Source of the DNA: a virus
Taxonomy: Duplodnaviria; Caudoviricetes
Direction: 5' to 3' (one strand)
Virus record (IMG/VR): IMGVR_UViG_3300011862_000001
Span: 160,001-224,000 of that record
DNA: 64,000 nt
This document shows positions 27,182-36,057 of the stretch, in pieces. The notes beneath the pieces were generated by a model that worked only from the letters and a program-made list of their open reading frames with translations, did no database searches and had not been told where the DNA came from. Position numbers and translations under genes: made by a program. The number at the start of each line of letters is the position of its first letter. Position 1 is the first letter of the stretch.

Positions 27182-27718
27182 ATGGCCATTGTAACGGCAC
27201 AGGCGCAACTGGTTGCCCTGTTTAATGCAAAGAATAGCAGTCTTGCCCAGGCGTTGACTGTAGGGGATGTCGACTTTGGTGCCGTTGCTGCATACAGCCC
27301 GACGGACGGAGCAGATACCCGTAACTCCAAGCTGACCATCACCGCAAAAACCGCGTCTATCTATTTCACTGGCGCAAAAGAACTCCACTACACCCGCTTG
27401 CCCGCTGCCGTTATCGGTGCGCAAGCTATCACTGAAGACCAGGCTAACTGGGACACCGATGCTAAAGTGTTGGCAAAAGTCAACGCAGCGGTTATCGCGG
27501 CCGGTAAAACCCAGGATGAGTTCGCACAGGCGGATTTGACTATTACACGCACCGATGGTGCCGATGGCGATGCAGGTAAGAAAATCGTCACGGTGGCCAT
27601 TAAAGCCGGTCACATCAAATACCTCGCGGGTAACCTCGCGGTGTATACCATCACTCAGCCTATTGTTAAGAATGACCTGAGTGCATCCAACGGTGAACTC
27701 GATACGTTTACCAACTAA
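27182..27718 (+). CDS. virion structural protein (short family member)
   Basis: FNAKN, RNSKL and HYTRL family motifs; ends LSASNGELDTF. Confidence 0.8.
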   Translation: MAIVTAQAQLVALFNAKNSSLAQALTVGDVDFGAVAAYSPTDGADTRNSKLTITAKTASIYFTGAKELHYTRLPAAVIGAQAITEDQANWDTDAKVLAKVNAAVIAAGKTQDEFAQADLTITRTDGADGDAGKKIVTVAIKAGHIKYLAGNLAVYTITQPIVKNDLSASNGELDTFTN

Positions 27719-28712: not shown

Positions 28713-29315
28713 TTATTTAGCGCACACGCCTACCTTGATGGCATAGTCATCCATCTCGCCGTAGACACGATCGTACCAGCCGTAGGTGAACTCTTCGTTC
28801 TGCACACGCTTCTCAGAGATTTCCGTGTAGTAGGAAACCTGATGGCAGCACAGCGCAAACATCAGACGGTTCAGGCCAGCGGCACCACGGGCTTTCACAA
28901 AACCGCCTAAGGCAGTAAGCGTAGCCGGGCCGATACCGCCATCTGCGTCGATGTCATCGTAGAGTTTACCCTGACGGTTCAGTACGTTCAGGACGCGTTG
29001 TAGGGATTTGATACAGTTAGCACGACCGGCGTTAATGCCGAAGTCGAACATACGGTCAGCCAGCAACGGGCTCATTGCAGTAATCTGGTCAAGACGCATA
29101 CGGTCCCACCAGAGTTTCTTGTAGATAGCCAAAGCCATCTCACGAGTTAGGTTACGCATGTCACCGGTATATCCATATTCACGAGCGGTAACTTGCGTGA
29201 TACCGAAGTTAGTTGGACCACCTAAGTCATTCGCGTTATTTACATAGCCAGCCTCAATGTTCACCTTGGCGGCAATGATGCCTTCCATGCTCCAGCGGTC
29301 TACGGCCATCGCCAT
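28713..29315 (-). CDS. glycoside hydrolase family 108 endolysin with a C-terminal peptidoglycan-binding domain
   Basis: EAGYVNNANDLGGPTNFGIT GH108 motif; FDFGINAG, LQRVLN, DGGIGPAT, FTYGW. Confidence 0.9.
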   Translation of the reverse strand: MAMAVDRWSMEGIIAAKVNIEAGYVNNANDLGGPTNFGITQVTAREYGYTGDMRNLTREMALAIYKKLWWDRMRLDQITAMSPLLADRMFDFGINAGRANCIKSLQRVLNVLNRQGKLYDDIDADGGIGPATLTALGGFVKARGAAGLNRLMFALCCHQVSYYTEISEKRVQNEEFTYGWYDRVYGEMDDYAIKVGVCAK

Positions 29316-29354: not shown

Positions 29355-29389
29355 GGAAAAAAAAAATAACAGTGGCCCGAAGGCCACTG
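29355..29389 (-). terminator. intrinsic terminator ending the rSAM cluster transcript
   Basis: CAGTGGCC-CGAA-GGCCACTG (TTCG loop on -) preceded by a long A-tract on +. Confidence 0.85.
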
Positions 29390-29393
29390 AGGA

Positions 29394-30050
29394 TTACAAC
29401 AGACCTTCGTCTTTTGCCAACTGCATCACTGCGGTAAAGTCACCTTGTTCGGCGAGCGTACGCAGACGTTGCTTTTTGACGTTGAGCGACATATGCAGGT
29501 CGTTATCACGTTGGATAATTGCCGCATACAGACCTTTCACATCATCAATCGCAAACGGTTCAACCGGGCTGTTGGTGGCATCAATCCAGTACATCGGGTC
29601 AACCCCAGACTGGATATAGCCGGTGAGTGCGGTGCGGGATTTCTCGTCAGCCTGGTAACGGTGACCAGCAAACTCGATATCCTGATAACGCAGCTCTGCA
29701 TAGCGGGTGTTCATCGCTTGCATCACACGGTTAAACTCACGCCACAGGTGACCTAAGGTTGAGGTCAGCCCTTTGCGGATATCATCCAACGGCAGTTCCA
29801 ACACGTCTTTGATAAACGCTTTGGTCTTTTCCATGGTGAACGCCGCTTCGGCATCAGAGAGGTCATGCCCTTTCAGCGCTTTCATCGCCTCTTTATCACT
29901 CATGCCGTTTAGCAGGTGATAATGCAAAAGGGTACAGAACCCTTGGCGCGTGGCGTCTTCAGTTCGCAGAATCCCGCTGTAGTTACCATGGCGGTCAATC
30001 GGGGTGCCAAACTCGAAGTAGCGACGCTTTATTTCGTCATTACTAAGCAT
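29394..30050 (-). CDS. DUF4376-like protein (tail-fibre-associated)
   Basis: C-terminal IEFAGHRYQADEKSRTALTG...YWIDATNS pattern typical of DUF4376-type phage tail-associated proteins. Confidence 0.65.
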   Translation of the reverse strand: MLSNDEIKRRYFEFGTPIDRHGNYSGILRTEDATRQGFCTLLHYHLLNGMSDKEAMKALKGHDLSDAEAAFTMEKTKAFIKDVLELPLDDIRKGLTSTLGHLWREFNRVMQAMNTRYAELRYQDIEFAGHRYQADEKSRTALTGYIQSGVDPMYWIDATNSPVEPFAIDDVKGLYAAIIQRDNDLHMSLNVKKQRLRTLAEQGDFTAVMQLAKDEGLL

Positions 30051-30586
30051 TCAGTTGCTCCTACTAAGCCCAGGTCCATCGCCAAGTCAAAGTCGAACAG
30101 CTGGAAGTCAGTGTAGATATCCTGGCCCCAGACGATGTTCATTTGCTCAGCGTGGTCCTGATTTTGTTCCATATAAGCCCGCGTCAAGTGCATCTCTTCC
30201 CCGAAGGCGTCATACGCTTCGTGGGAACGCACGGCACGTACCCGAAGCTCAGGCCAGCTTAACGCCAGACCAATCAGGTTTTCCGTGTCGAGATTACGCG
30301 TAGAGCGGCGTAAGATTTCGATTTTGTGGCGCGGGAAGTCAGTGACACGCGCTTCAAAGCCCGGGTTACGTTTTTCCACTTCGACCACCGAGTTATGGTG
30401 TTCTTCGACACCGTCCAACGTCAGTATCACGTTTAAGCCAAACCGGATACACAGTTTAACGACGTCGTCGGTAAAGGCATCGGGCGCTACCAGCGCATGG
30501 GCGTTGTACAAGCCGTGCTTGTGCAAAAACGCCGCCACCAGGTGGTGACTACGCTTGGTAAAATTGTGTATCAGAAAGGCTTTCAT
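30029..30586 (-). CDS. hypothetical protein in the rSAM cluster
   Basis: GGAG RBS before ATG 30586; overlaps both neighbours. Confidence 0.75.
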   Translation of the reverse strand: MKAFLIHNFTKRSHHLVAAFLHKHGLYNAHALVAPDAFTDDVVKLCIRFGLNVILTLDGVEEHHNSVVEVEKRNPGFEARVTDFPRHKIEILRRSTRNLDTENLIGLALSWPELRVRAVRSHEAYDAFGEEMHLTRAYMEQNQDHAEQMNIVWGQDIYTDFQLFDFDLAMDLGLVGATECLVMTK

Positions 30587-31889
30587 TAGCAGTGGCTCCA
30601 GTTTGGGTCTTTTTCGCTGCTTCTGCACGTTGACGTACGCAAGACACGCAGTAGCATTGGGTTTTATCGTTTAAGTCGGTATAGCGTACGGTACCAGTTT
30701 TCTGGTAGAAGTATTCCGCGACTAACAGCTTCGCCGTCGTCCATCCACACTGGCGACGTTCAGCGTGGTACTCTTTACGGGCTTCAATCTCACCGTCACC
30801 GTTTTCGTACGAGGCCGCAGCACAGCTGCCGCACGCGTGTTTCATCGGACACCCTAAGCAGGTCTCTGGGTAGTTGGTGTACTGATTTTGAATCTCATTC
30901 AGTAACTTACCACCGTCGATGTTAACGATTTCCCGGCCACGCAGTTCAGCGACCGCCTGACGGGTCGTTACGGTAGACATAAAACGGTTGCAGCCGTAAA
31001 TCTTACGATCAAAGCCCAGGCAGGTCATGTGGGATACTGTACCACAGAAAGGACGCACACGCTCCGGGTTCAAACGGGTGGCTTCGTCGTCGAGTAACTT
31101 CTGACGCCAGTCCGGGTCCCAGGTCGCCATAAAGTCCAGACCATCCGGGAAGATGTGAGTCAGACGGTTACGCGGGTCATGCTGCAAGCCTTTGTCAAAC
31201 CAGTAGTCAATCACATCCATCATCTGGTTGGCAATCGACAACGCCGACTGACGTGGCAGCACGTCTTCGTACGTTACGTTACCCGAGATGGTGCCACCGC
31301 CGGTGACGTCAATCAGGTGCTTCATGCTCTCGGCATAACGCGGCAGGGTTTCACTGGTGAAGGTCGCTTTGATACCAAGCTCCAGGATACCCACCGACTT
31401 CAGGTAGTTGTAGCCGCGCATCGCTTTCTCATACGAGCCTTCACGGCTTACCGTAAAGATACGATAGCGGTCGTGCACTTCTGGCAAGCCATCAATCGAC
31501 ACCCCGATAGACAGCTTGTCGCGCCAGCGTTCGATAATCTGCTGGTTCAGTGGACGGTCAAACAACGTACCGTTAGTGGAGATAGAAAAGATAACGTCGC
31601 GATTATCGCGCTTGGCTAACTCTTCTGCCGCCTCAAAGACACCGAGCAGGATTTTCGGTTGCATCATCGGCTCACCACCGATAATGTCGATAATCACTTC
31701 CACGTTCTCTAAGTGACGGTCACGGTCAAAACACGCATGGATAAAGTCTACCGCGTCATCGACTTTGTTGTTACGCGGGTACTTACGCTCGTAGCAGTAT
31801 TCACAGTCGAGGTTGCACGACAGGTTGGTGACCACCTGATAAGTCTTGGTGATTTTGGGTGTTACCACCGGCATTTTATTATCGCGCAT
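30549..31889 (-). CDS. radical SAM peptide maturase with a SPASM-type auxiliary Fe-S domain
   Basis: CNLDCEYC SAM-cluster motif, IIGGEP, STNG, SIDG; C-terminal CG...GCNRF...CLGC...CGSC...C SPASM-like cysteines; extra CYCVSC near the end. Confidence 0.92.
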   Translation of the reverse strand: MRDNKMPVVTPKITKTYQVVTNLSCNLDCEYCYERKYPRNNKVDDAVDFIHACFDRDRHLENVEVIIDIIGGEPMMQPKILLGVFEAAEELAKRDNRDVIFSISTNGTLFDRPLNQQIIERWRDKLSIGVSIDGLPEVHDRYRIFTVSREGSYEKAMRGYNYLKSVGILELGIKATFTSETLPRYAESMKHLIDVTGGGTISGNVTYEDVLPRQSALSIANQMMDVIDYWFDKGLQHDPRNRLTHIFPDGLDFMATWDPDWRQKLLDDEATRLNPERVRPFCGTVSHMTCLGFDRKIYGCNRFMSTVTTRQAVAELRGREIVNIDGGKLLNEIQNQYTNYPETCLGCPMKHACGSCAAASYENGDGEIEARKEYHAERRQCGWTTAKLLVAEYFYQKTGTVRYTDLNDKTQCYCVSCVRQRAEAAKKTQTGATANESLSDTQFYQA

Positions 31890-32784
31890 TGCTTAGCCCC
31901 ACTTGAATTACACGATTGATGTAACGATACGCGTCCAGACCGATTACTTCAGCCAGACGGTTACAGCCCGAGTCCAACGCATCGACCGCGTTCTCACTTT
32001 GCCCAAAGGTGGCATCCGATTTCAACCACACCAGGTCACTACAGGCATCACAGTGATGAGTAAAGAACTTGTTCACCGACAATGCGATATGATGACGGTT
32101 AATACGGTTCAGGTTCATCAGCTGTTCATGCATACGGTTATAGCCGTACATAAAGTTCATAACGTGGTCAGGCGACAAGGGCTTCGGCATGAAGTTGTCA
32201 AACATCAAACGGAACCCCTGAAGCTTGTAGTGGTACATCGCCTCGTGTAACTTCAGCACGTCAAGGTACCAGTATTTGTTCCCTAACTGCTCACGAGTCA
32301 CCACCGACCACAGCTGCACGTTATCGAGCGCATGCAGCACCTCAAACACTTCAAAACGGCGCTCTTCAGCGACGCGCAGTAACGGACGTTCGGTTTCAGC
32401 ATAGCCATCAAACGACACGAATATCCGATCAAACTGCGCCAGCACCGGAAGCTGCTCCAGCGTCAAACGTAGCGCGTTGGTGTACATCTCATGTTGCAGG
32501 TGCGGGTAGCGTTCTTTCACCTCCGCCAGAAACTCCCGGATCTTCGGGAATGCCAGTAAGGGCTCACCCCCCGTCCAGTTGATTTGACGAATGGTGGGGT
32601 ACTGCTCGAGCAACGCGAACAGTTTTTCTTTTTGAATATCACGACCGCTGTCTTTGATATCCATGTAGCCCGCACCACCACAGAAGCTACAACTTAAGTT
32701 GCATTTCGATGTGGTCACGATCGACAACTCGGCAGGAGTTGCCGTCGGGTCGCGACGAATGGCCGACACAGCTTCTTCATTCAT
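31879..32784 (-). CDS. second radical SAM protein (short, truncated auxiliary domain)
   Basis: CNLSCSFC, WTGGEP, YTN, SFDG; only CDAC...C at the C-terminus. Confidence 0.88.
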   Translation of the reverse strand: MNEEAVSAIRRDPTATPAELSIVTTSKCNLSCSFCGGAGYMDIKDSGRDIQKEKLFALLEQYPTIRQINWTGGEPLLAFPKIREFLAEVKERYPHLQHEMYTNALRLTLEQLPVLAQFDRIFVSFDGYAETERPLLRVAEERRFEVFEVLHALDNVQLWSVVTREQLGNKYWYLDVLKLHEAMYHYKLQGFRLMFDNFMPKPLSPDHVMNFMYGYNRMHEQLMNLNRINRHHIALSVNKFFTHHCDACSDLVWLKSDATFGQSENAVDALDSGCNRLAEVIGLDAYRYINRVIQVGLSNAR

Positions 32785-32805
32785 TGCAGGTTTACTCCAG
32801 TTTTT

Positions 32806-33690
32806 TTAAAAGGTCAGCGCAAACAACGGATCGTCTTTGATGTCCACACCCGTTTCTAAGATGAACGGTGAGTGGTAAGCGTCCAGGATAGTGTTCAAGA
32901 CTGTCTGACGGTCGTTGATACGCTTTAAATCCGCAAGCGTGACGCTACGCGCAAGAATTTGCGAGACAGCCGCTTGTTCTTCTTTACTGAGGGTAACTTT
33001 GTTCAGTAAGAAGCACACCACTTTCGCCAAATCGGCTTCGGTTCCAGGCGCTTCACCAAACTTCCACTGCACCAGGTACTGCATCCACGGTTTGCGGATA
33101 CGCTTGGTGATTTCGTGTTTATCGGTAAGTCCCACAAACTTCTGCTCAGCGTGGTGCCAGACGAATTTGTAGCTGTAGGCCAGCAGGTCGAGCATATGGT
33201 GAATGCCGAGCTCTTCGTAGCCTTCAATCGGGTAATAGGTTTCGAGACCGCTGTAGTCCACGGTGTCTGCCGGTACCTGGGAATACCAGGTCGGGTGTGA
33301 GCTTGGGTAGTCCCAGCTCCATTCACGACGCACCATCGGCTTTAACCCAGATTGGGTAAACGGCGTCAGCAACATTTCCAAGTCGGCGGTTTGGTTTAAC
33401 ATCCCGTCACTCAGGAAATACTTACGGTCGACGAACTTGCCAGTGATTTCCAGTTCGCCGGTGTTCAGATGGATATGTTCTACGGTGTGACCAAGCAGCG
33501 TAAAGCTGTTCAGCACTTCATAGTTCTTCGGGTCCACCAGTTCACGACCACGCACCTTTGGCCATTCGCCAGGCAGCTGCGTAATCAAGCGAATTTGGTC
33601 TAACAGGTGATACTTCACGCTGTCGTAAATGCTGATATGCAGTGGGAAGTTTTGCGTTGTGCGAAACGCCAAGTGCAAATCGTTCTTCAT
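32806..33690 (-). CDS. hypothetical protein in the rSAM cluster
   Basis: 294-aa ORF between the Cys-rich peptides and the rSAM genes; no motif recognised. Confidence 0.85.
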   Translation of the reverse strand: MKNDLHLAFRTTQNFPLHISIYDSVKYHLLDQIRLITQLPGEWPKVRGRELVDPKNYEVLNSFTLLGHTVEHIHLNTGELEITGKFVDRKYFLSDGMLNQTADLEMLLTPFTQSGLKPMVRREWSWDYPSSHPTWYSQVPADTVDYSGLETYYPIEGYEELGIHHMLDLLAYSYKFVWHHAEQKFVGLTDKHEITKRIRKPWMQYLVQWKFGEAPGTEADLAKVVCFLLNKVTLSKEEQAAVSQILARSVTLADLKRINDRQTVLNTILDAYHSPFILETGVDIKDDPLFALTF

Positions 33691-33702
33691 GAAAAGTTCC
33701 CC

Positions 33703-33909
33703 TTAGAGGTTGCCTGCGCCATGGCTACAGCCGCCGCTGCATGTCCAGCTACAGGAACCGCCACAGTTATAATGCCATAAGGGCAGTCCGGCGAGGTTGT
33801 TGGTGTAGCTTACCGTTCCGCGTGTTGCAATGTATTCGTTGGCGTCATCGGTCTTGATGTACTTCTCAACCAGGACCATCCGGTTACGAATGTCTTTGAG
33901 TGATACCAC
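33703..33909 (-). CDS. Cys-repeat precursor-like peptide 3 (short core, 4 Cys)
   Basis: Leader VSLKDIRNR...NNLAG followed by NCGGSCSWTCSGGC; GTG start at 33909 aligns with its paralogs. Confidence 0.85.
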   Translation of the reverse strand: MVSLKDIRNRMVLVEKYIKTDDANEYIATRGTVSYTNNLAGLPLWHYNCGGSCSWTCSGGCSHGAGNL

Positions 33910-33957
33910 ATTAACCCCCAAATGTGTAAAAAGGTCGCGTGAGGGAAAGGTCCGCGC

Positions 33958-34353
33958 TTATCGCGACGGGCCGGAACACCCAGAACACCCAGAACACGAT
34001 GAGCTGCACGTCGAGCTACAGCCGGTACACGCACTGCTACAGCCTGCTGAACAACCACCAGAACACCCTCCCGAACAACCGGTACAGGTTCCTGAACAGC
34101 CAGACGTACAACTCGCAGAACAACTCGCCCCACACGTCCCTGAGGCTGAACCTGAGCACCCACCTGAGCATGAAGAACACGTCCAACTGCACGTTCCCCC
34201 ACAGTCGTAGTGCGTCCGGTCAAAACCGGCAAAGCGGTTAGCGTTATTGGTGGCTTTCCCACGGATATAATTCTGCACCCCATTGACATCACGCAATGCG
34301 GTGGCGTCAATCGCATTAATGCGATCGCGAATATTCTTTAATAAAATTGCCAT
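33958..34353 (-). CDS. Cys-repeat precursor-like peptide 2 (20 Cys)
   Basis: GAGG RBS; leader MAILLKNIRDRI...NNANRFAG, then a CxxxC/CxxC Ser/Gly/Thr repeat ending CSGCSGP. Confidence 0.9.
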   Translation of the reverse strand: MAILLKNIRDRINAIDATALRDVNGVQNYIRGKATNNANRFAGFDRTHYDCGGTCSWTCSSCSGGCSGSASGTCGASCSASCTSGCSGTCTGCSGGCSGGCSAGCSSACTGCSSTCSSSCSGCSGCSGPSR

Positions 34354-34364
34354 GCGTGTTTCCT

Positions 34365-34748
34365 CTACGGTCCAGAACAACCGGAACACCCGGTGCAACT
34401 GGATGAGCAGCTACCGGAACACCCGGAACAGCTTTTTGAACACCCGCCGGAGCAACTGCCGGAGCAACCCGAACAGCCGGAGCATCCCGTAGAGCAACCC
34501 CCTGTACAACTTCCCGTACAGGTCGAGGTACACGTCCCCGAACAACTCGTACAGCTTGCAGAACATCCGTTAGAACACGACCAGCTACACGACCCGTTAC
34601 AATCCAGTCCCGGTTGCGACCACCCGGCGAAGCTGTCTTGTGCGTTATTCGCTTGCACAGCCACCTGGTAATCAACCCGAGGGCCAGTAGCGTATGTGTT
34701 TTCCACGTTCTGCAAACGGTCGCGTATGTTTTTAACTGAGATAACCAT
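34365..34748 (-). CDS. Cys-repeat precursor-like peptide 1 (21 Cys)
   Basis: AAGGA RBS; leader MVISVKNIRDRL...NNAQDSFAG, then a CxxxC/CxxC repeat ending CSGCSGP. Confidence 0.9.
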   Translation of the reverse strand: MVISVKNIRDRLQNVENTYATGPRVDYQVAVQANNAQDSFAGWSQPGLDCNGSCSWSCSNGCSASCTSCSGTCTSTCTGSCTGGCSTGCSGCSGCSGSCSGGCSKSCSGCSGSCSSSCTGCSGCSGP

Positions 34749-34811: not shown

Positions 34812-36011
34812 CTAACGAGTACCGGCTTCTGCCTGTACGTCGTCACGCGTGGTCAGGCTGGCGTTGACGTGAACGTTGGCCTGAATCACGCCACCGTACT
34901 GTTTGTGCAGGTATTGAGTGTGTGGGTCAACGGCTGCCGTGTGGTTAGCCAGACTCTGCGACACGCCAGAGATACCGGCGGTGTTGTTAGCGACCTGTTG
35001 ACGCAGTTGCGCCAAGTCGGCTGCCACATCGCGGAATTTCTGCTCAGTCGCAGCACCCTGAGTTTCCAGGTTAGTGACCCGTTGCGCCAAGGCAGCAATT
35101 ACCTGATTCTGGTCGGTGACCATCTTCTGGAGTTGCAGCACCAGGTCGTTAAGGTTCGCTAACTGAAGCGCCATACGCTGGTAGTTCTGCGCAACCGAGT
35201 TCAGCTGGTCATTCCAAGACGCCAGGGCTGAAACGATAGCATCGATACGTCCGTTAATCGCGGTGTCCGCTGCTTTCAAATTCCCGATGTCGGAGAGCAC
35301 TGCATCAATCGCGGTTTGTACCTGAGCAATCAGTGCTCGGATTTCCGTTTCGGTTAAGCCGTTGGCCTGATGAATGTCCAGACTGTGAACGTTACCCTGG
35401 GCGTTGATGTGGGTTTGAAGCGCAGTCATAAACTGCGTTTTCATGTCGGTAATCAACGTGGCGAGCTGTTCAAGCTGAAGCGATTGCCCGGCATTAATCA
35501 CATCACGGATACCGGCAATTTCGGTAATGACGTATTCAAAGCCAAACAAGTCACCCAAGTCTTTAAACATCGGCGCACCCGGGAAGGTGTCCGGCACATT
35601 ACGCAGGTTCTTAAAGTCAATGATTTTGTCTTCAAGATTGGCATCAGCCAAGCCCTGCTTAATCGCGGCAATGTTCGCTGACTGCGGACCCCCAACCACT
35701 TGCGCTACCGCAATCAGGTCGGTTGGTACAGAGGAATCGGTTACCACCACCGCCATACAGATTTCGCGGTTGTTTGCCATCTTCTGATAAACGGGGTGGG
35801 TCAGGATAAGCTCGTAGTGGGTACCGCGCACTAAGTTCGTGTTCGGGGCACTGGCAGGACGCAAGCGGAACGTGTCTGCATAGAACGGCCCTGCGGGAAA
35901 CGCAAAGGCACGGTTAACTTTACCACCGCCCAAAACGATAGGTACCGAGACCGCATTCGAGGTCATCGTCCCTTTCAAATCAAGCGGGTACTGATAAATG
36001 ATATCTGGCAT
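34812..36011 (-). CDS. virion protein / short tail fibre with a long coiled coil
   Basis: N-terminal YPLD...GPFY...LVRGTHYEL domain shared with the three upstream fibre genes; heptad coiled coil; HTAAVDPHTQY fibre motif. Confidence 0.8.
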   Translation of the reverse strand: MPDIIYQYPLDLKGTMTSNAVSVPIVLGGGKVNRAFAFPAGPFYADTFRLRPASAPNTNLVRGTHYELILTHPVYQKMANNREICMAVVVTDSSVPTDLIAVAQVVGGPQSANIAAIKQGLADANLEDKIIDFKNLRNVPDTFPGAPMFKDLGDLFGFEYVITEIAGIRDVINAGQSLQLEQLATLITDMKTQFMTALQTHINAQGNVHSLDIHQANGLTETEIRALIAQVQTAIDAVLSDIGNLKAADTAINGRIDAIVSALASWNDQLNSVAQNYQRMALQLANLNDLVLQLQKMVTDQNQVIAALAQRVTNLETQGAATEQKFRDVAADLAQLRQQVANNTAGISGVSQSLANHTAAVDPHTQYLHKQYGGVIQANVHVNASLTTRDDVQAEAGTR

Positions 36012-36057
36012 AGCCAAACTCCCTTAGCAGGACTTCCTTGTCCCTTATCGTGAATGG

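Follow-up and report, generated by a model that had tools for sequence, protein, structure and literature searches.

Paired radical SAM enzymes beside tandem cysteine-repeat proteins in jumbo phages: a possible tail-fibre tip maturation module

Introduction

Radical S-adenosylmethionine (rSAM) enzymes with a SPASM domain are known as maturases that make small secreted natural products. Here we describe a phage cassette of eight genes in which two rSAM enzymes, one of them of the SPASM type, follow three tandem cysteine-repeat proteins, which we call pepA, pepB and pepC. The cassette is located in a 64,000-nucleotide stretch of DNA, termed the window below (positions 160,001 to 224,000 of the IMG/VR record IMGVR_UViG_3300011862_000001, Caudoviricetes), and the phage genome from which the window was taken is complete, 236.9 kb long and has terminal repeats. 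In this setting the same enzyme class appears to be tied to the host-recognition hardware of a phage.

The closest described system is the bacterial CXXX-repeat system (TIGR04115, TIGR04119 and TIGR04114/TIGR04117/PF27846), in which the same type of rSAM-SPASM enzyme is found beside proteins in whose matrix of Ser, Gly and Thr every third or fourth residue is a Cys. We know of no characterisation of its product chemistry, and a literature search found no paper on it. TIGR04115 is the top-scoring family for the phage enzymes, i.e. 123.6 bits were obtained for the window enzyme and 185.8 bits for a homolog in a Synergistaceae prophage (locus L011), both far under the cut-off of 350 bits. NCBIfam and Pfam searches of the cassette found neither a TIGR04119 domain nor a peptide-export ABC transporter, whereas a bona fide bacterial locus (L009) has both. 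The phage system adds a short rSAM enzyme, a 294-amino-acid (aa) protein, a 185-aa protein that may be an rSAM-like pseudo-enzyme, and a probable fibre chaperone. The targets differ as well, since those of the phages have a fibre-like segment of 50 aa at the N-terminus, or comprise an entire fibre, and show an invariant CSW entry motif.

Three further systems resemble parts of the cassette. The thioether-forming maturases PapB and CteB are similar to the phage rSAM-SPASM enzyme in score (122.9 bits against PapB, NF047865, with a cut-off of 340 bits), in structure (CteB, 5wgg, is the nearest solved structure, E=1e-22) and in the complete set of SPASM cysteines. The phage enzyme, however, has no N-terminal RRE (precursor-recognition) domain, because its CxxxCxxC motif starts at residue 25, the Cys-repeat core has no Asp or Glu, i.e. 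the acceptors used by PapB, and the substrates resemble structural proteins. The His-Xaa-Ser system (HxsB, HxsC, HxsA) likewise has a pair of SPASM and non-SPASM rSAM enzymes beside a short-period repeat peptide. The window SPASM enzyme scored 79 bits against HxsB and the short rSAM 37.9 bits against HxsC, which is also the top family of the short rSAM of L011 (49.3 bits), but all these scores are far below the cut-offs, the repeated residue is Cys and not His-x-Ser, and the context is that of a phage. Finally, the fibre modules of the Alteromonas phages V22 (gp26/gp27) and A5 (gp8/gp9) end with a DUF4376 protein that does not belong to the particle, gp161 of Salmonella phage SPN3US is likewise absent from virions, and the DUF4376 proteins of V22 and A5 have been shown experimentally to be tail-fibre chaperones (PMC7289586, PMC10579305). 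The cassette differs from these modules in having four maturation genes, two of them for rSAM enzymes, between the fibre-like genes and the chaperone, and in that its "fibres" are only 68-131 aa long.

In other words, an rSAM-SPASM enzyme with a Cys-rich target is already known as a type of system. What is new in the phage version is the paired rSAM enzymes, two accessory proteins outside characterised families (one of them without a recognisable fold), the fibre chaperone and the fibre-end-like targets. Literature searches found no paper on this system, nor any that links phage rSAM enzymes to Cys-repeat proteins or fibres.

Results and Discussion

The cassette and its proposed role

The reading that we favour, with middling confidence, is that the cassette may be a fibre-tip maturation module and that pepA, pepB and pepC may be miniature fibre-end proteins. 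A broader and more tentative proposal is that several unrelated phage lineages use the rSAM pair to cross-link a Cys-repeat domain at the distal end of the tail fibre, the targets in SPN3US-type phages being separate mini-fibre chains of 68-131 aa. Besides the jumbo phages of Erwinia, Salmonella and Cronobacter, a Synergistaceae prophage and several metagenomic phages carry the system. What has been observed, and is described in the sections below, are the genes themselves, the degree to which they are conserved, the families to which they are related and the homology of the small proteins to the C-termini of fibre-like proteins. The features of the cassette and its two neighbours are as follows (window coordinates, all on the minus strand):

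34365-34748, minus: pepA, 127-aa Cys-repeat protein (phrog_6085, E=3e-44)
33958-34353, minus: pepB, 131-aa Cys-repeat protein with 20 Cys (phrog_6085, E=1e-48)
33703-33909, minus: pepC, 68-aa short paralog with 4 Cys (phrog_6085, E=1e-25)
32806-33690, minus: 294-aa accessory protein (phrog_8030)
31879-32784, minus: short rSAM enzyme, 301 aa, motif CNLSCSFC (PF04055, 53.7 bits)
30549-31889, minus: rSAM-SPASM enzyme, 446 aa, motif CNLDCEYC (PF04055, 50.2 bits)
30029-30586, minus: 185-aa accessory protein (phrog_7988)
29394-30050, minus: DUF4376 protein, 218 aa (PF14301, E=2.9e-10, 41 bits against a gathering cut-off of 25, residues 112-198)
29360-29389, minus: intrinsic terminator, 8-bp stem with 6 GC pairs, TTCG loop and T-run
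34812-36017, minus: context, 401-aa coiled-coil virion protein directly upstream (phrog_2163, E=3e-97)
28713-29315, minus: context, endolysin with GH108 and PG_binding_3 domains directly downstream of the terminator (Pfam, 76.6 and 71.1 bits)

According to our proposal, each small protein would consist of a short helical N-terminal segment, a junction motif and a repeat domain of Cys, Ser, Gly and Thr. The paired rSAM enzymes would install covalent cross-links at the repeated Cys residues in the reducing cytoplasm of the host, where disulfides cannot form. Since the SPASM enzyme is kin to the CXXX-repeat, PapB and CteB maturases, the links would most likely be Cys-to-carbon thioethers. The invariant CSW entry motif may be the site at which the short rSAM works, with help in the cross-linking step perhaps from the 294-aa protein and the 185-aa putative pseudo-enzyme, and the DUF4376 chaperone would then aid folding or attachment. 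The product would become part of the tail as a rigid distal element that resists proteases and redox changes, with the tip-less 401-aa coiled-coil protein as its possible point of attachment.

If this is true, the product would be a receptor-binding or tip structure that is stapled by thioethers and independent of disulfides, and the first case in which an rSAM enzyme modifies a structural protein of the virion post-translationally. The orphan CXXX-repeat family of rSAM targets would gain a biological role, and the finding would explain how a knotted domain of extracellular grade can be made within a reducing cytoplasm. Moreover, it would bear on the host range and the particle stability of biocontrol phages (Erwinia amylovora, Salmonella).

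The layout of the cassette agrees with the original prediction, which had described eight contiguous minus-strand genes (29394-34748), several of them overlapping, closed by a strong terminator. All eight open reading frames (ORFs) were found, three junctions overlap (31879-31889, 30549-30586 and 30029-30050), and the terminator stem spans 29389-29370 and is followed by TTATTTTTTT. The start of pepB is the ATG at 34353, the 146-aa ORF with a TTG start being over-extended, and with the ATG start the apparent overlap of pepA and pepB vanishes. The most likely start of pepC is the GTG at 33909, which gives 68 aa. The 185-aa gene starts at 30586; the match to PHROG 7988 begins at residue 15 of the 199-aa ORF. 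A 1690-aa fibre and the 401-aa coiled-coil protein are encoded upstream of the cassette.

The Cys-repeat proteins

In pepA an N-terminal segment of 49 aa precedes a core of 78 aa that contains 21 Cys, and pepC shares the N-terminal segment and the CGGSCSWTC entry motif with its longer paralogs. The cores consist to 90-92% of Cys, Ser, Gly and Thr, with 21, 20 and 4 Cys in pepA, pepB and pepC, respectively, and a core Cys content of 26%. The gaps between the Cys residues are 3 or 2 residues long (CX3C and CX2C spacing), apart from one gap of 7 where Ala stands for Cys. This composition and spacing of the repeat is far beyond chance. The junction (F/L)xGxxxxxY-[DNR]-C-x-G-x-CSW-[ST]-C and the CSGCSG(P) end are invariant. 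The earlier description of the genes as three tandem paralogs is confirmed.

The conservation of the core was investigated by comparing the window with Erwinia phage Caitlin. There are 46 synonymous and 8 non-synonymous codon changes in the pepB core and 37 and 9, respectively, in pepA. The changes fall mostly on third codon positions, and conservation is higher in the core than in the N-terminal segment. In four phages whose SPASM enzymes are 60-90% identical the Cys counts are fixed (21, 20-21 and 4). A survey of synteny across jumbo phages, which had been suggested as a check, showed that all 17 related IMG/VR loci keep the three-peptide set, i.e. ORFs with the entry motif number exactly three per locus, two of them long and one short, and that pepA has 21 Cys in each of them. 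The matches to PHROG 6085, the codon statistics, the fixed Cys counts and the IMG/VR survey all show that the repeat frame is the correct one, i.e. a real frame under strong purifying selection.

The family relations of the peptides are less clear-cut. No NCBIfam or local Pfam match at E<=0.01 was found for pepA, pepB or pepC, and for pepB there was none at E<=10. The window peptides share with the CXXX-repeat targets the regular Cys period in a matrix of small residues, but the target profiles (TIGR04114, TIGR04117 and PF27846) do not match them. Four peptide relatives (P0004, P0006, P0082 and P0089) have precomputed PF27846 matches that are mostly weak. A sequence search of the PDB with the peptide profile gave nothing significant, the best match being a Cys-rich domain of the nematocyst wall (E=0.5). 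We also note a metagenomic protein of 767 aa (P0086), which matches TIGR04114 and TIGR04117 and whose N-terminal part of about 400 residues is an unbroken CXXX repeat. The CXXX part is followed by three tandem repeats of about 90 aa with a common SGSWxNAHH motif, which are possibly Ig-like.

Homologous cassettes in other phages

The cassette region is about 76% identical at the nucleotide level to that of the Erwinia jumbo phages Caitlin, ChrisDB, Asesino and phiEaH2, and Salmonella phage SPN3US and Cronobacter phage CR5 are more distant relatives. Searches with pepB showed that the Cys-repeat module recurs in several other phage settings, in most of which the rSAM pair adjoins longer Cys-repeat proteins that occupy tail or structural positions. 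The phrog_6085 profile, which was built on the jumbo-phage peptides, aligns from position 7-12 onwards to the C-terminal ~110 residues of four of these proteins (P0082, P0083, P0084 and P0087). In other words, what looks like a "leader" in pepA, pepB and pepC has its counterpart within proteins of 240-570 aa, in a segment at the end of the shaft, so it is probably not a disposable leader of a ribosomally synthesised and post-translationally modified peptide (RiPP).

The settings are distinct. In L011, the Synergistaceae prophage, a lambda-type tail module has the order tape measure, minor tail protein, NlpC/P60 protein, gpJ-like tip, a 475-aa coiled-coil Cys-repeat protein, short rSAM, two 294-like proteins, SPASM rSAM, GH108 endolysin and holin. 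The 475-aa protein, which stands right after the gpJ-like tip, ends with "…NAEKLNGYTSSYFRCSNACSWTCSS…". The succession of fibre, rSAM cassette and endolysin in this prophage is that of the window. In L031, a 213-kb phage contig, baseplate-wedge-like genes are followed by the gene of a 568-aa protein and then by the rSAM enzymes. This protein contains LDLKAPL..A.LTG repeats (phrog_16122, virion structural) and has the same entry motif and 28 Cys at its end. L012 and L013 are similar. In L007 the rSAM pair is preceded by three tandem paralogs of 226-245 aa, each of which has a Cys repeat at the C-terminus, again with this entry motif, fused to a domain like the N-terminal domain of T4 gp9/10 (Pfam, E=5e-4; PHROG 967 "baseplate wedge tail fiber connector", E=1e-5; Atlas, 0.95). 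L005 and L006 represent an unrelated phage that has the five-gene core in homologous form, with two long peptides and one short, pepC-type copy, a 289-aa protein (30% identity to the 294-aa protein, E=9e-32), one short and one SPASM rSAM, the latter 50% identical to that of the window, and a 172-aa protein.

Every one of these settings has the Cys-repeat module and the two rSAM enzymes. The 294-like accessory protein was found in the window, in L005/L006, L011 and L012, where it adjoins the rSAM pair, and more weakly in L013; it was not detected in L007 and L031. The pairing of enzymes and Cys repeat is kept in at least five unrelated phage backgrounds, with enzyme identities of 31-50%.

Two other genes were noted near these cassettes. 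A third rSAM gene (394 aa) lies about 5 kb upstream of the cassette in L005 (4271-5455, same in L006). In L012 a reverse transcriptase gene (5-1099; phrog_1423, E=3e-127) lies immediately upstream of the gene of P0083, a 238-aa fibre-like Cys-repeat protein, and may be part of a diversity-generating retroelement beside an rSAM-modified fibre.

The original prediction regarded the small proteins as RiPP-like leader/core precursors. The Cys-rich core beside an rSAM-SPASM enzyme stands, but the notion of a classical disposable leader probably does not, given that the leader is homologous to a shaft end and the core is the more conserved part. It was also proposed that the product is a modified virion component rather than a secreted bacteriocin, and this gains comparative support from the occurrence of the module at the C-terminus of fibre-like proteins beside the same enzymes and from the chaperone family of the DUF4376 protein. 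We favour a virion appendage over a bacteriocin because the whole small protein is homologous to the C-termini of proteins in fibre position next to the same enzymes.

Among the other explanations a classical RiPP is the one that survives best, although we regard it as unlikely. In such a system the 50-residue leader would be recognised by the enzymes or by the 294-aa protein and later removed by a protease of the host or one encoded elsewhere, and the cross-linked core would be set free as a diffusible bioactive peptide, e.g. an antibacterial, an agent against competitor phages or a signal. An exporter would be unnecessary because lysis releases the product, and there is indeed an endolysin immediately downstream of the cassette. 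The architecture of leader, core and rSAM-SPASM enzyme matches known systems, the bacterial CXXX-repeat system of L009 carries an ABC exporter of the bacteriocin type, and the cassette of L005/L006 is not linked to a tail module. On the other hand, in agreement with the original observation, searches of NCBIfam, Pfam and PHROG detected no peptidase, ABC exporter or immunity family in the cassette, and neither a peptidase nor a transporter family was found in any of seven cassette contexts, i.e. that of the window and six others. The conserved core with its fixed Cys counts is unlike diversifying natural products, the homologous segments of the 240-570-aa proteins lie inside the chain and cannot be leaders, and the operon includes a fibre chaperone.

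It is improbable, in our view, that the Cys-repeat proteins have an intracellular role, modified or not, as metallothionein-like binders of metals or Fe-S clusters, as redox buffers or as anti-defence factors. Their Cys spacing and Cys content are like those of metal-binding proteins, the rSAM enzymes themselves need several Fe-S clusters, and a gene of the Acb2/Tad1-hairpin family is found just upstream of the cassette in L005/L006 (L005:9220-9441, about 500 bp away, same in L006). This family is one of anti-CBASS or anti-Thoeris sponges. Such a role is nevertheless hard to reconcile with the fusion of the repeat to fibre-like or gp9/10-like N-terminal domains and with the placement in tail modules, and the operon of the window lies among late structural and lysis genes and includes the fibre chaperone.

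Several observations weigh against the fibre-tip reading itself. The cassette of L005/L006 lies among genes for a nucleotidyltransferase, the Acb2/Tad1-hairpin-like protein, a GIY-YIG protein and GroEL, and not among tail genes. For the N-terminal parts of the longer homologs there is in most cases no significant match to a tail-fibre family, so that the label "fibre" rests mainly on gene position and on the matches of L007 and L031. When a profile of the N-terminal segment was compared with all ORFs of the window phage genome, no similarity to the phage's own fibre proteins was found; this profile included a few unrelated sequences from the selection pattern, which account for its two weak extra matches. 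The scores of the rSAM-SPASM enzyme are so far under the curated cut-offs that its reaction could differ from thioether formation. Finally, the chemistry, the roles of the enzymes, the retention of the N-terminal segment and the attachment to the virion are what we infer for all members of the group. As regards the N-terminal parts, tblastn with those of P0087 and P0084 gave weak matches (E 5e-5 to 7e-4), all of them to genes annotated as tail fibre or minor tail, and tblastn with that of the L031 protein gave no matches. An Mtd_N-like start, which had been considered for P0082, was not confirmed by Pfam and was dropped.

The two radical SAM enzymes

Besides the CxxxCxxC motif, the rSAM-SPASM enzyme has 8 further Cys residues that are invariant in five diverged homologs and include CxxCx5CxxC, i.e. 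the full SPASM set. The match to TIGR04115, its best NCBIfam family, covers profile positions 5-346 of 359 (E=1.3e-35), and three Cys-repeat targets are encoded upstream in the same operon, as would be expected of a CXXX-repeat maturase. We note that a genuine TIGR04115 member, the enzyme of the bacterial locus L009, scores 507 bits. The original prediction of a maturase of the thioether-RiPP type, for which a profile search of both rSAM enzymes had been proposed, therefore holds for the kinship with TIGR04115, PapB and CteB and does not hold for membership in TIGR04115 or PapB, since the scores are below the cut-offs. On the basis of sequence, the phage rSAM-SPASM enzymes are best described as a distinct sister lineage of the Cys-peptide maturases, outside the named families.

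The SPASM enzymes of the jumbo phages have an additional C-terminal CxCxxC motif and a conserved QFY(Q/E)A tail (window 30549-30700), both of which are missing in the shorter homolog of L007. This region may be a docking site or an extra metal site.

The short rSAM enzyme has no full SPASM domain; two invariant Cys residues and one nearly invariant Cys are found near its C-terminus. Its similarity to known families is generic, the best matches being weak ones to the PapB N-terminus, twitch and HxsC. Comparison by hhalign of the profiles of the short rSAM, the 294-aa protein and the 185-aa protein with the C-terminal domain of the L009 enzyme gave probabilities below 1%.

It would have spoken against the original prediction if the rSAM genes were found in related phages without the Cys-repeat genes, but the two co-occur strictly (63 phage records for the rSAM enzymes and 62-64 for the Cys-repeat genes; 17/17 loci). 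That the Cys-repeat genes are mere neighbours of enzymes with a different substrate (a nucleotide, a cofactor or another tail protein) is very improbable, since the generic character of the short rSAM, which also has weak matches to MoaA, viperin and QueE, and the fact that enzyme and substrate are paired here by their genes are opposed by the preservation of this pairing in unrelated phages and by a best family match to a maturase whose known targets are CXXX repeats.

The accessory proteins and the DUF4376 protein

The AlphaFold model of the 294-aa protein (predicted local distance difference test score, pLDDT, 88; predicted template modelling score, pTM, 0.83) has a β-rich N-terminal domain and a helical C-terminal domain. 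No PDB match was found by Foldseek at E<=0.001, the best VIA Z score was 4.7 and the best template modelling (TM) score in the Atlas was 0.31. A feature search of the ESM Atlas gave weak leads only. The predicted complex of the protein with the N-terminal 66 residues of pepB had a score of 0.00, from which no verdict was drawn, and was not used as evidence.

The predicted fold of the 185-aa protein (pLDDT 90.9) is a partial TIM barrel like the rSAM core, and its top VIA matches are rich in rSAM proteins, i.e. the PFL-AE domain (Z 9.0), SuiB (8.7), QueE (8.2), CteB (7.9) and anSME (7.8). This likeness is one of fold only and its Z scores of 7.8-9 are in the middling range. The protein does not contain the CxxxCxxC motif, and hhalign of its family against both rSAM families was not significant. 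Judging from the model, it may be an rSAM-derived pseudo-enzyme.

The DUF4376 protein, whose gene closes the module at its 3' end, scores above the Pfam gathering threshold. It had been predicted to be a DUF4376-like, tail-associated protein; the domain is present, whereas a structural part of the tail is not what the evidence suggests, because the family is one of chaperones and the SPN3US ortholog, gp161, is absent from virions. By its sequence it is probably a tail-fibre chaperone.

The virion proteome of SPN3US and the flanking tail proteins

In SPN3US, gp160 and gp167-171 are virion proteins, gp167-171 being absent from tailless particles, and no product of gp161-166 was detected in virions (Thomas et al. 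2016, PMC5105663, Table S4). The DUF4376 protein, the 185-aa protein, both rSAM enzymes and the 294-aa protein correspond to gp161-165, and their absence from the virions fits non-structural maturation factors. With respect to the peptides the proteome is uninformative, because none of them is correctly annotated in the record and the cores have no tryptic sites; we assume that the spectra were searched against the annotated proteins.

The 401-aa protein of the window is the ortholog of the tail-associated SPN3US gp167, and Caitlin, SEGD1, CR5 and SPN3US have kept the gene order. We regard the coiled-coil protein as a candidate carrier of the small Cys-repeat proteins. On the other side of the cassette, a 178-aa DUF7941 protein (27182-27718, plus strand) stands at the position of SPN3US gp160, an orthology that is derived from gene order only. 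SPN3US gp160 is an abundant head-associated virion protein of 18.5 kDa (124-280 spectra) that is also present in tailless particles (PMC5105663).

Mis-annotation in public records

The repeats open long ORFs in several frames, and GenBank records took wrong ones. SPN3US gp166 (L004:15410-15745) is an out-of-frame, Val/Ala-rich ORF over pepB, and pepA and pepC are unannotated in this phage. In Caitlin, gp175 and gp176 (L001:16637-17149) are a 37-aa fragment and an ORF on the opposite strand at the Cys-repeat genes. The starts of "radical SAM protein 2" in SPN3US, SEGD1 and CR5 are placed too far downstream, so that the CNLxCSFC motif is cut off; the motif is found in frame upstream of the annotated starts (L004:13346-14257, L003:6103-6981). 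In other words, three conserved genes are absent or mis-framed in the reference records, the model phage SPN3US included, and existing proteomic data are open to a renewed search against the correct ORFs.

A peculiar case is pepA of SEGD1 (L002:4098-4499), which is apparently frameshifted, i.e. the leader ORF ends after 47 aa and the core is in another frame. The gene is intact in the near-identical SPN3US, and the frameshift in SEGD1 would be either a sequencing error or the mark of a recent pseudogene.

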